Shown: positions 56,399-57,965 of the stretch, one piece after another
Layout: the number at the start of each line of letters is the position of its first letter
Numbering within the stretch: position 1 is the first letter of the stretch
Notes under the pieces: model-generated
Database searches by the model: none
The model's input: only the letters and a program-made list of their open reading frames with translations
Told to the model about the DNA's origin: nothing
Translations under genes and position numbers: made by a program
Assembly (NCBI RefSeq): GCF_036507355.1
Contig: NZ_AP027878.1
DNA from: Escherichia coli
GTDB lineage: Bacteria; Pseudomonadota; Gammaproteobacteria; Enterobacterales; Enterobacteriaceae
Length of the DNA: 64,000 nucleotides
Reading direction: 5' to 3' (one strand)

Positions 56399-57044
56399 TT
56401 ATTAACCTCATTACTGGTTGGGAAATAAGGTTGCGGTGCCGGGTGCTTCCCGGTGTCCTTTAGCTGGTTATCCACCGTGGACGGGGAAATAAGGAGAAAT
56501 AATGGACAGATATAACCATTTCCCCGCGTGCGCTTAGCCGCATTCACCGCAACGGAAAGAGCATTCCTGGTGGACCTGTAGATTGGGATATGAACCCGTT
56601 ACAGGAGAATGCTCTTACCTGTTACGTGCTCCGTTTCGTGGAGCTAACGGCGGGTGATCGGGCCGCACCAGACTGGACTTATTTCAGCGTTATGCTCATG
56701 CCAGAGAATCAAACTGTGATGGTCGGTGCTGAACTCCGACACAGGGTTGTAGCAAGCCCCGCAAAGCGCGCACTACTGTAGTTGCGGCACATCAGCCTGT
56801 GCATTCACCACAATGTTGAGAACACTGGTTGTCACGCTGCAACGCAACATTTATTCGTAGATTGGGATATGACCCCGTTACGCCAGTGTTCTCAACGTTG
56901 TAGTGCCGGTTACGGTTCCGGCCAGGCCTCTTCCTCAACGGGGTGTTCTCCATACGGACTACCGTTTATTGGTCGTTCCTGCGGTTTATGTTGTGAAGCC
57001 AGATGCTTATCTTCTGGTTGCTTCAAAGAGCTGCACTTCATCAC

Positions 57045-57128
57045 AACGGTAAGGGTACTTCGTAGGGATTCGAACCCTCTGCCAAGCTCGGCGATCTCCG
57101 ACGTCGCAAAATACCCTTACCTGTTGTG
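57045..57128 (-). ncRNA. tRNA-like structured element (T-arm-like AGGG-TTCGAAT-CCCT inside a long inverted repeat), not a canonical tRNA
   Basis: Minus strand has GGTTCGAATCC T-loop motif but no matching acceptor or anticodon arms; flanked by 17-bp inverted repeat CACAACAGGTAAGGGTA/TACCCTTACCGTTGTG. Confidence 0.35.
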
Positions 57129-57129
57129 C

Positions 57130-57205
57130 TGGTGCCGATTAACGGACTCGAACCGCTGACATCCTGCTTACAAGGCAGGCGCTCTACCAACTGAGCTAAA
57201 CCGGC
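57130..57205 (-). tRNA. tRNA-Thr (anticodon UGU)
   Basis: Minus strand GCCGGTTTAGCTCAGTTGGTAGAGCGCCTGCCTTGTAAGCAGGATGTCAGCGGTTCGAGTCCGTTAATCGGCACCA. Confidence 0.85.
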
Positions 57206-57207
57206 AT

Positions 57208-57283
57208 TGGCGATGGTGGATGGATTTGAACCATCGACCCGTTGATTAACAGTCAACCGCTCTAACCGCTGAGCTACACCATC
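57208..57283 (-). tRNA. tRNA-Asn (anticodon GUU)
   Basis: Minus strand ...GCTCAGCGGTTAGAGCGGTTGACTGTTAATCAAC...GGTTCAAATCC...CCA; two nt from tRNA-Thr. Confidence 0.85.
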
Positions 57284-57748
57284 ACTTGCCGGGTACGTCT
57301 CCGGCGAGGGCTTCCACCTCCGTATGCTTTTCGGCGCACCGCGCCCTGGCTGCAATTCGGTAACAGGGGATGCACAACCCTGGCTTCCAGCGTGATTAGC
57401 GCCTTCAGCATGACGGGATATACCCGTAAATTCGTGGAACTGTACCCAAAGTGCTGTTAAGCACCGCTGTTACGCTGAAAAGAAAACGCAACAGGAAAGG
57501 ACGCTGACCAACAGATGGCCCCTTCTCGTTCATCTGGTTAATCACACCAGCGCCCTTACCTGTTGTGCCTCCCCGTTCCCTAATACACAGACGGGGACAC
57601 TCTGCGGTCGATTTTTTGACGGGGGACGACTCATACCCCGTGGCATCTGGCTTCTTAGGCCGCTACCATCATCAGATCATCGTTTGCATTTACTTTAATG
57701 GTCAGTTTCTAAACCGCCGCAAAGTCGCTAACCATGACGAAAACCCTG

Positions 57749-57774
57749 AAAAAAACGCCCACCCGAAGATGGGC
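57749..57774 (-). terminator. Strong intrinsic terminator in the ban/tRNA operon leader
   Basis: Minus strand GCCCAUC-UUCG-GGUGGGC then seven U; about 160-180 nt downstream of the operator-overlapped promoter. Confidence 0.6.
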
Positions 57775-57937
57775 AAACTGGAAGCTCGTAACGCACTTCG
57801 GCGTTGCCACTTAGGCGCATGGTCAACCTGGCAACTCGGTGGTTTGTCTGGGAGGACTAGGCCCAGCCATGCTTACCGCCGCGCCTGTCGCGGCTAACAG
57901 CTAAATCGCTCTATAAATCACGATTCATTGAGGCGAT

Positions 57938-57965
57938 ATTACACTAATAAATTTATTAGAGCAAT
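57938..57965. promoter_or_regulatory. Bipartite C1 operator overlapping the promoter of the tRNA/ban operon
   Basis: Perfect AAATTTATTAGAGCAAT (57949-57965) overlapping a second inverted copy (57938-57954); minus-strand -35 TTGCTC and -10 TAATAT with 17-bp spacer. Confidence 0.8.

Follow-up and report, generated by a model that had tools for sequence, protein, structure and literature searches.

Long imperfect hairpins with exchangeable inserts, one of them tRNA-like, in the ban operon leader of phage P1

In rRNA operon precursors, RNase III stalks enclose the 16S and 23S rRNAs. Phage transcripts feature structured elements too. Theta ribozymes, which resemble that of hepatitis delta virus (HDV), adjoin phage tRNAs and have been linked to tRNA maturation (PMC10879173). 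RNase III processing sites have been reported for the late transcript of phage lambda (Daniels et al. 1988, Virology 167:568, as cited in PMC7547250). A survey of transfer-messenger RNA (tmRNA) in phages lists mycobacteriophages and Bacillus phage G only, plus the mycobacteriophage DS6A, in which the RNA is reduced to its tRNA-like domain (TLD) (Hudson et al. 2014, PMC4131195). The locus described here belongs to a stretch of 64,000 nucleotides (nt) from Escherichia coli (GCF_036507355.1, contig NZ_AP027878.1; hereafter, the window), which is as a whole 99.9% identical to phage P1. It hosts four paralogous long imperfect hairpins, denominated H1 to H4, which were recognized by repeat finding, folding and self-comparison. 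All are members of a widespread family, in which a conserved and covarying stem of about 20 base pairs (bp) carries an exchangeable apical insert. The insert of H2 is a tRNA-like RNA lacking the anticodon arm, and recurs in unrelated phages.

H1-H4 and the two tRNA genes among them lie in the untranslated leader of the ban operon, which is annotated in the P1 record and transcribed from the minus strand. Elements follow each other on this strand in the order Pban/Op72, dicF-like terminator, tmRNA-like module (hereafter, the tag module), H1, tRNA-Asn, tRNA-Thr, H2, H3, H4, tciABC, tRNA(CAT) and ban. The hairpins, the tRNAs and the sequences next to them are the following.

57487-57568, minus strand: hairpin H1; the insert has no T arm, and includes a CUGG-UGUGAUUAA-CCAG stem-loop
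57553-57568, minus strand: copy A of a repeated 16-mer, 5' arm of H1
57208-57283, minus strand: tRNA-Asn(gtt), called by ARAGORN; Rfam 74.5 bits
57130-57205, minus strand: tRNA-Thr(tgt), called by ARAGORN; Rfam 72.9 bits; the CCA is followed by 1 nt and then by the H2 stem
57114-57129, minus strand: copy B of the 16-mer, 5' arm of H2; GCACAACAGGUAAGGG on the RNA
57040-57129, minus strand: hairpin H2; long imperfect stem with a bulged A and apical tRNA-like insert
57056-57113, minus strand: tRNA-like core without anticodon arm, as read from the sequence
56806-56905, minus strand: hairpin H3; stem CUACAACGUUGAGAACACUGG / CCAGUGUUCUCAACAUUGUGG, insert with the T-arm-like GGGGUCAUAUCCC
56786-56808, minus strand: small hairpin GUGAAUGCACAGGCUGAUGUGC, after H3
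56628-56644, minus strand: small hairpin GCUCC-ACGAAAC-GGAGC, before H4
56548-56626, minus strand: hairpin H4; insert with the T-arm-like GGGUUCAUAUCCC

The 16-mer CCCTTACCTGTTGTGC had been noticed in the first-pass annotation as a direct repeat bracketing the two tRNAs. With up to 2 mismatches permitted it still has only two occurrences, 57114-57129 and 57553-57568; shuffled sequences contain on average 0.05 matches, and none of 100 shuffles gives two. The copies are identical, but they are not isolated repeats. Each is the 5' arm of a hairpin, and has its own partner arm. Copy A, in H1, faces 57487-57506 (18 nt, 89% complementary); copy B is part of the 57107-57129 arm of H2, which pairs with 57040-57062 leaving one bulged A, and the inverted repeat reported earlier around the element is thus real. 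Folding of the H2 minus-strand RNA (101 nt) yields -42.7 kcal/mol (z = -4.89), a value reached by none of 200 shuffles, whereas the plus strand folds at -36.4 kcal/mol. H1 folds at -47.7 kcal/mol over 111 nt. The inserts of H3 and H4 have in common an internal 25-mer with the T-arm-like motif GGGKUCAUAUCCC.

The H2 insert includes a canonical T arm at 57064-57078 (motif AGGGATTCGAACCCT; AGGG-UUCGAAU-CCCU), as previously noticed, in which the 7-nt loop UUCGAAU is of the TΨCRANY type. The element had been described as devoid of both acceptor and anticodon arms. The anticodon arm is indeed missing. In contrast, the top 7 bp of the H2 stem (57107-57113 pairing with 57056-57062, UAUUUUG/CGAAGUA) are placed against the T arm in the manner of an acceptor stem, and 57091-57107 form a D arm (GCGA-CGUCGGAGA-UCGC, with GG in the loop). 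A linker of 10-12 nt, between D and T arms, takes the place of anticodon arm and variable loop. The insert therefore has the T arm, the GG-containing D arm and the 7-bp acceptor helix of tRNAs, and lacks a cloverleaf with an anticodon arm and a tRNA score of at least 29 bits. The suggestion that it is a tRNA mimic stands for what concerns the three helices and their conservation in unrelated phages, but the tRNA covariance model does not recognize it. RF00005 finds no match in 57040-57129 even at E<=10, and ARAGORN makes no call there. At E<=10 the element attracts only noise from Rfam (mascRNA at 14.9 bits, E 9.9, ALIL, and plastid untranslated region families). YrlA, a Y RNA, was rejected, as its Rfam match falls on the two real tRNAs and not on the element, which also differs from it in topology. 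HDV-like, theta, hatchet, twister and pistol ribozymes were discarded, as they have no Rfam matches on the P1 hairpins.

The structure of H2 is supported by comparisons. In an alignment of H2-type hairpins from 16 contexts, 95.5% of the cells are paired, and both-sided changes occur at 9 pairs; covariation is 0.247, against 0.107 in shuffled alignments (0/500) and at most 0.085 with slid partners. The core of the insert was found in 107 stretches from the IMG/VR database, representing 37 distinct contexts. Outer stems around the core vary in sequence, and one of them (L153) is completely different. The three acceptor pairs next to the core covary, being UUG/CGA, GGG/CCC, GAG/CUC or GCG/CGC. 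The 58-nt core is nearly constant within diverging stems, an invariance due in part to the search pattern, which fixes the sequences of D and T arms and makes their conservation uninformative. When a covariance model of the H2-type hairpin (R1) was run over 100 loci selected by the tag pattern, family stems with other inserts were retrieved, but no divergent tRNA-like cores.

Hairpins of this family are not restricted to P1. The stem has CACAAC/GUUGUG as outer pairs, a bulged A and a U.U mismatch, and was found in P1-like phages, SSU5-like phage-plasmids, Klebsiella lambdoid prophages, where it lies between Q and the holin gene, and an N4-like phage; hosts are temperate enterobacterial phages and some lytic ones. 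Scans of IMG/VR identified 60 instances of the hairpin; with both strands read, 198 distinct sequences were counted. Phage lambda (J02459) hosts a copy at 44778-44894, just after tR', the 6S RNA terminator, and this is 99% identical to an IMG/VR member. The lambda hairpin proper spans about 44789-44865 (within locus L133, 44400-45300), and the annotated orf-64 (44621-44815) runs into it. What comes after this hairpin in lambda (GAAUUAAGCGAAUACCGGAAGCAGAACCGG...) recurs inside the hairpin found downstream of tRNA-Ser in P7 and D6, which denotes mosaic exchange of leader modules. Stems were also retrieved independently of their arms, by using as anchor the downstream motif GUGAAUGCRCAGGCUGAUGYG. 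Stems anchored in this way have very different sequences, but their length is always 18-24 bp.

Inserts vary too. T-arm-like hairpins other than that of H2 are found as inserts in 33 of the 198 family entries. A complete type I hammerhead core, CUGACGAG...CGAAAC...GUC, forms the insert of a hairpin that follows a tag module in L122, a lambdoid contig from IMG/VR (minus strand, about 1720-1930; L041 is a further case). Its match to RF00163 reaches 24.7 bits (E 0.002) and stays short of the gathering score, which is 34. A hammerhead core at this place fits the notion that inserts are RNA-processing or structured-RNA cargo. In three independent cases the hairpin starts 0-1 nt past the CCA of a tRNA: these are tRNA-Thr and H2 in P1, tRNA-Ser and a family hairpin in P7 and D6, and tRNA-Thr and an H3-type hairpin in CMS-2020a.

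Conserved ends, terminal inverted repeats, variable interiors and presence in many unrelated phages are also traits of mobile DNA. The hairpins may thus be viewed as selfish or neutral palindromic repeats, similar to miniature inverted-repeat transposable elements (MITEs) and having no function as RNA, and the H2 element as a tRNA gene decayed by loss of the anticodon arm. The tRNA covariance model does not match the insert, which is moreover dispensable in P7 and Ro157c2YLVW, and Ro157c2YLVW and SJ46 have lost T-arm-like remnants of H3 and H4. A DNA palindrome or a MITE, however, would decay in the same way on both strands. In 65 distinct stems read on the tRNA-sense strand there are 116 G.U pairs and only 9 A.C 1x1 mismatches, an asymmetry that denotes selection on the sense-strand RNA. 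MITEs would also lie in either orientation, whereas all tRNAs found within 1.5 kb of a family hairpin are on the sense strand of the hairpin. Orthologous hairpin copies carry compensatory changes, and the near constancy of the 58-nt core, with the reservation made above on the search pattern, is not what decay would leave. Inverted arms are present, but neither a transposase nor target-site duplications have been seen, though they have not been systematically searched for. A decayed tRNA gene within MITE-like DNA is accordingly an improbable explanation. Integron attC sites were discarded as well. The likeness consists in an imperfect hairpin with conserved ends and variable centre, but the ends do not fit RYYYAAC/GTTRRRY, no integrase gene is nearby, and selection is RNA-strand-specific.

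P1-like relatives feature a stem-plus-cargo design, with the same arms around different inserts. In P7 and Ro157c2YLVW, H2 arms surround an unrelated 41-nt insert, and in JL22 and RCS47 both H2 inserts are found in tandem, with an extra hairpin that adds 195 bp. The T-arm-like part of H4 is deleted in Ro157c2YLVW. In SJ46, recombination between homologous inserts removed the region from H3 to H4. tRNA genes also come and go. Ro157c2YLVW has tRNA-Tyr inserted between tRNA-Asn and tRNA-Thr, and in P7 and D6 a tRNA-Ser(tga) separates H3 from H4, with a family hairpin directly after its CCA. The differences in tRNA content and the extra hairpin were located at L003 1840-1926, L004 1338-1424, L005 1138-1224 and L007 about 1700-1830.

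The two 16-mers had been regarded in the first-pass annotation as a possible signature of att-type recombination, by which the tRNA cassette may have been acquired as a unit. The repeats match at 16/16 positions, and bracket the H1 insert, a spacer and both tRNAs; a deletion between them would recreate the order seen in lambdoid phages, in which a tag module is followed by a tRNA-like hairpin. If the repeats were att junctions, identical cores should be kept among relatives, and some relatives should lack the insert and break at the core. This is not the pattern observed. Both copies are arms that co-evolve with their own partners. In the D6 and SJ46 lineage the 5' arms of H1 and H2 are identical at 14/16 positions only, and a C-G to U-A change inside H1 is compensated. 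No sampled P1-like relative lacks the tRNA segment or is broken at the 16-mer. H1 is kept in 24/24 distinct P1-like and N4-like contexts, none of which breaks at the repeat. The tRNA-Tyr of Ro157c2YLVW was inserted without using the repeat, and most family members have no tRNA nearby. All rearrangements seen lie between homologous family members, as expected from homologous recombination. Site-specific integration at the 16-mers is therefore extremely improbable. Acquisition of the tRNA cassette as a unit may still have occurred by homologous exchange at hairpin arms, rather than through an att-type junction, because the SJ46 deletion and the 195-bp hairpin of JL22 and RCS47 result from recombination between family members.

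H1-H4 are plausibly explained as double-stranded processing stalks that punctuate tRNA and mRNA precursors and are probably cut by RNase III, an explanation we hold with even confidence. The idea of a duplicated processing signal, already advanced for the 16-mers, comes close to it. Substrates of RNase III span about two helical turns (at least 20 bp), mostly of Watson-Crick pairs, on the transcribed strand; the stems measure 18-24 bp, interrupted by a single bulge or mismatch. The explanation is suggested by this length and pairing, by the small structured RNAs enclosed, by the 0-1 nt left between tRNA CCA ends and hairpins, and by the RNase III sites reported for the lambda late transcript. 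On the transcript, the stems would serve as double-stranded RNA stalks, for which the likeliest enzyme is RNase III, in the role it has on the 16S and 23S rRNA stems. Its cuts would detach the tRNAs from the tci-ban mRNA that follows, leave short tRNA trailers to be trimmed by exonucleases down to the CCA, and free the apical inserts as small RNAs. What is established is the existence of the family and its structure, that the sense-strand RNA is under selection, that hairpins start right at tRNA 3' ends, and that inserts are exchanged; cutting by RNase III, and whatever function a released insert may have, are inferred.

Several points weigh against this explanation. The stems counted above are not phylogenetically independent. 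The majority of family members have no tRNA within 1.5 kb, so that tRNA maturation cannot be the general role. RNase III sites of the lambda late transcript are here assumed to fall in the family hairpin, a location otherwise suggested by its being the dominant dyad of the leader. Moreover, the outer stem (CACAAC/GUUGUG, bulged A and U.U) is conserved beyond the known needs of RNase III, which hints at a sequence-specific partner or at a recent horizontal spread. Finally, intrinsic terminators are found upstream in P1 and in lambdoid phages, and expression of module, hairpins and tRNAs therefore seems to need terminator read-through or antitermination.

A second conserved RNA precedes H1. It resembles the mRNA-like part of tmRNAs, and includes the elements listed below.

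57570-57744, minus strand: tmRNA-like tag module, between the dicF-like terminator and H1; unannotated
within 57570-57744, minus strand: D-loop-like GUUUUCGUCA, part of the module
57655-57687, minus strand: tag open reading frame (ORF), GCA AAC GAU GAU CUG AUG AUG GUA GCG GCC UAA, encoding ANDDLMMVAA and a stop, in the resume context UAAAU|GCA
downstream of the tag, minus strand: H5-like helix, then a pseudoknot (stem 1 at 57619-57642)
57570-57597, minus strand: hairpin CCCCGU-CUGUGUAUUAGGGA-ACGGGG, with a conserved loop

The tag encoded by E. coli ssrA is ANDENYALAA. At least 10 variants of the phage tag, all of 10 codons, were found in P1-like, lambdoid and N4-like phages (ANDDVVLMAA, ANDDLMLMAA, ANDEQFLAVA, ANEEMYLAVA and others). 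All fit the form AN(D/E)(D/E)....(A/V)A followed by a stop, and the final Ala codons differ synonymously. In the pseudoknot, which covaries strongly, stem 1 is paired at 98% and stem 2 at 88.5%, with compensatory changes at 4/4 pairs of stem 2; covariation is 0.412, against 0.167 in shuffled alignments (0/500) and at most 0.13 with slid partners. The module thus has both a tag frame, with a GCA resume codon and a terminal AA before the stop, and a downstream pseudoknot. The Rfam models tmRNA_permuted and beta_tmRNA give partial matches (E 0.003-0.07), limited to the tag region, which recur in a lambdoid relative; tmRNA scores (RF00023, RF01850, RF04321) range from 14 to 26 bits, below the gathering thresholds of 47-84. 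ARAGORN, run with the -m option, makes no tmRNA call on P1 or its relatives. In the enterobacterial module there is no GGGGCUG acceptor strand, T arm or ACCA/CCA end, and the pseudoknot PK1 upstream of the tag is not established. A long-range helix closing the module (UGCG/CGCA) is almost invariant, hence uninformative. A perfect 12-nt complementarity between 57643-57654 and 56995-57006 (GAAGCCAGAUGC / GCAUCUGGCUUC) would join the nucleotides immediately after the stop codon of the tag to the hairpin just 3' of H2; it was discarded as a conserved pairing, since substitutions in D6 and P7 are not compensated.

Among 5426 complete E. coli genomes, 659 (about 12%) contain the module, carried by P1-like plasmids and lambdoid prophages, and in these 659 the Prokaryotic Genome Annotation Pipeline (PGAP) has no annotation at the place. 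The same tag scan retrieved canonical permuted, two-piece tmRNA genes from IMG/VR (L344, L350, L351, L388, L392, L394, L395, L408, L410, L413, L418, L419, L425), in which T arm, acceptor strand, ACCA, a hairpin, GGGGCUG...UCGAC and PK1 precede tags such as ANDEVFALAA and ANDERFALAA. The context UAAAU|GCAAACGA is common to these genes and to the enterobacterial module. In one phage group (L017, L116, L254, L255, L369, L370 from IMG/VR), a sigma-70-like promoter (TTGACA, 17 nt, TAGATT) lies a few bases upstream of either the tag module or a family hairpin led by a degenerate tRNA-Thr 3' half. The promoter motif suggests that in this group module or hairpin can be an independent transcription unit. 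No description of tmRNA-like RNA in P1 or lambdoid phages was found in the literature. The tRNA-like cargo and the adjacent tmRNA-like module appear undescribed, and any earlier knowledge of the hairpin family appears limited to the hairpin of the lambda late leader.

Proximity of module and hairpins raises the question whether the H2 insert is the detached TLD of a tmRNA-derived system, having its mRNA-like part at 57570-57744. We regard this as unlikely. After release the insert would bind SmpB and either work together with the tag module or affect host trans-translation, as a decoy or a modulator, roles which are doubtful to the same extent. Insert and module might even form a split phage device mounted on a processing stalk, which hijacks, re-tags or blocks host ribosome rescue by SmpB/tmRNA; this too must be seen as a tentative idea, with the chances rather against it. 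The reality of the tag module, documented by the tag variants with synonymous Ala changes, the partial Rfam tmRNA matches and the covarying pseudoknot, lends some weight to such a system. The insert has a TLD-only architecture, including acceptor helix, a D loop GUCGGAGAUCGCC comparable to tmRNA CUGGUGAUCGAC, a vestigial 3-bp helix at the place of P2, and T arm. A tag module is found within 900 nt, on the same strand, in 26/32 distinct insert contexts, and in lambdoid phages insert hairpin and module are immediate neighbours (-132/-120 or +127/+129 nt). There is also a precedent in DS6A, the tmRNA of which consists of a TLD only; inhibition of tmRNA by TLD molecules has been described, and may be due to titration of SmpB (PMC4131195).

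A TLD to be charged should have free 5' and 3' ends, a G3.U70 pair and a 3' CCA. The H2 insert, by contrast, continues from its acceptor helix into the long stem, which locks both ends and leaves no 3' CCA free, and its position 3:70 is U.G instead of the G3.U70 required by alanyl-tRNA synthetase. The D arm, with its 4-bp stem, is tRNA-like and unlike that of tmRNA. Rfam tmRNA scores are far under threshold and concern the tag region only, and ARAGORN is silent. The tag module is kept in P7 and Ro157c2YLVW, which lack the H2-type insert, and the insert is missing from the vicinity of 27 of 59 modules. Linkage of insert and module may be mere co-residence in one leader.

The remaining features of the region are listed here.

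about 57937-57964, minus strand: Pban with the C1 operator Op72 (P1 record)
57739-57840, minus strand: dicF-like region (P1 record), the 3' end of which is an intrinsic terminator
57774-57749, minus strand: intrinsic terminator of the dicF-like region; strong, upstream of module, hairpins and tRNAs
downstream, minus strand: tciA, tciB and tciC, then a tRNA with anticodon CAT, then ban (P1 record)
56590-56781, plus strand: upl, ORF of the P1 record, antisense to the structured RNA region
56782-57159, plus strand: plp ("putative lipoprotein"), ORF of the P1 record, overlapping tRNA-Thr in antisense for 30 nt

The terminator separates Pban from the tag module, the tRNAs, tci and ban; in lambdoid relatives the same modules are found right after tR'. 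At the gathering threshold Rfam detects in the whole window three tRNAs and nothing else, and Asn, Thr and Met(CAT) are the sole ARAGORN calls. The third tRNA (55623-55698, minus strand) is tRNA-Met(cat) for ARAGORN, and tRNA-Ile2 in the P1 record (ileX-like, with a lysidine-modified CAU anticodon). Between tRNA-Thr and tciA the P1 record has no minus-strand gene for about 730 nt. On the opposite strand, upl and plp are probably spurious ORFs and not real genes, because Pfam has no family for either product, plp runs antisense to tRNA-Thr, and the region carries in relatives indels of 19 and 13 nt, which are not multiples of three.

Few phages have been studied as thoroughly as P1 and lambda; even so, annotation of the P1 ban leader is corrected by these data. 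About 1.3 kb hitherto annotated only with upl and plp consist of conserved, covarying RNA modules found across very different phages. They define a portable RNA design of stem and cargo, in which tRNA-like RNAs, T-arm hairpins and hammerheads can serve as cargo, and this design could account for the exchange and maturation of tRNA genes and small RNAs in the leaders of phages. In parallel, a tmRNA-like tag template hosted by 659 of 5426 complete E. coli genomes has been overlooked by annotation pipelines. If insert and tag module do cooperate, phage interference with E. coli ribosome rescue becomes directly testable.

Comparison with known systems places the H2 insert between different RNAs. 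As canonical tRNAs (RF00005), it has a TΨCRANY-type T loop, a D arm with GG and a 7-bp helix at the T arm, but it has no anticodon arm, free ends or encoded CCA. As the TLD of tmRNA, including the TLD-only RNA of DS6A (PMC4131195), it is phage-borne and combines acceptor helix, D loop and T arm in the absence of an anticodon arm; it is, in addition, located near a tmRNA-type tag template. It differs from the TLD because it lacks G3.U70 and a CCA end, has a stemmed D arm and a 17-bp extension closing the acceptor helix, and because no P2 helix connects the insert to the tag module. mascRNA/MALAT1 (RF01684) and YrlA (RF02553) are tRNA mimics similarly contained in longer transcripts, and the YrlA mimic sits on a long stem formed by the two ends of the RNA. 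YrlA is however a permuted mimic, with the long stem at the anticodon position, whereas H2 follows the tRNA order and its stem extends the acceptor helix; the mascRNA score of the element is not significant.

At the level of the hairpins, theta ribozymes are similarly structured RNAs located beside phage tRNA genes, and one family member carries a hammerhead insert, but H1-H4 are plain long helices with no Rfam ribozyme match. Closer are the stalks of rRNA precursors, in which the flanks pair into a long stem around a structured RNA and tRNAs are present in the same precursor; the P1 inserts are in contrast small (30-200 nt) and interchangeable, and cleavage is predicted. The lambda hairpin found after tR' (stem CACAACAGGUAAGAGCAUUG / CAGUGCUCUUUCCGUUGUG) is of the same family by sequence, and has a similar setting in an untranslated leader, immediately past an intrinsic terminator. 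P1 is distinguished from lambda in having four copies that flank tRNAs, one of which carries a tRNA-like insert.

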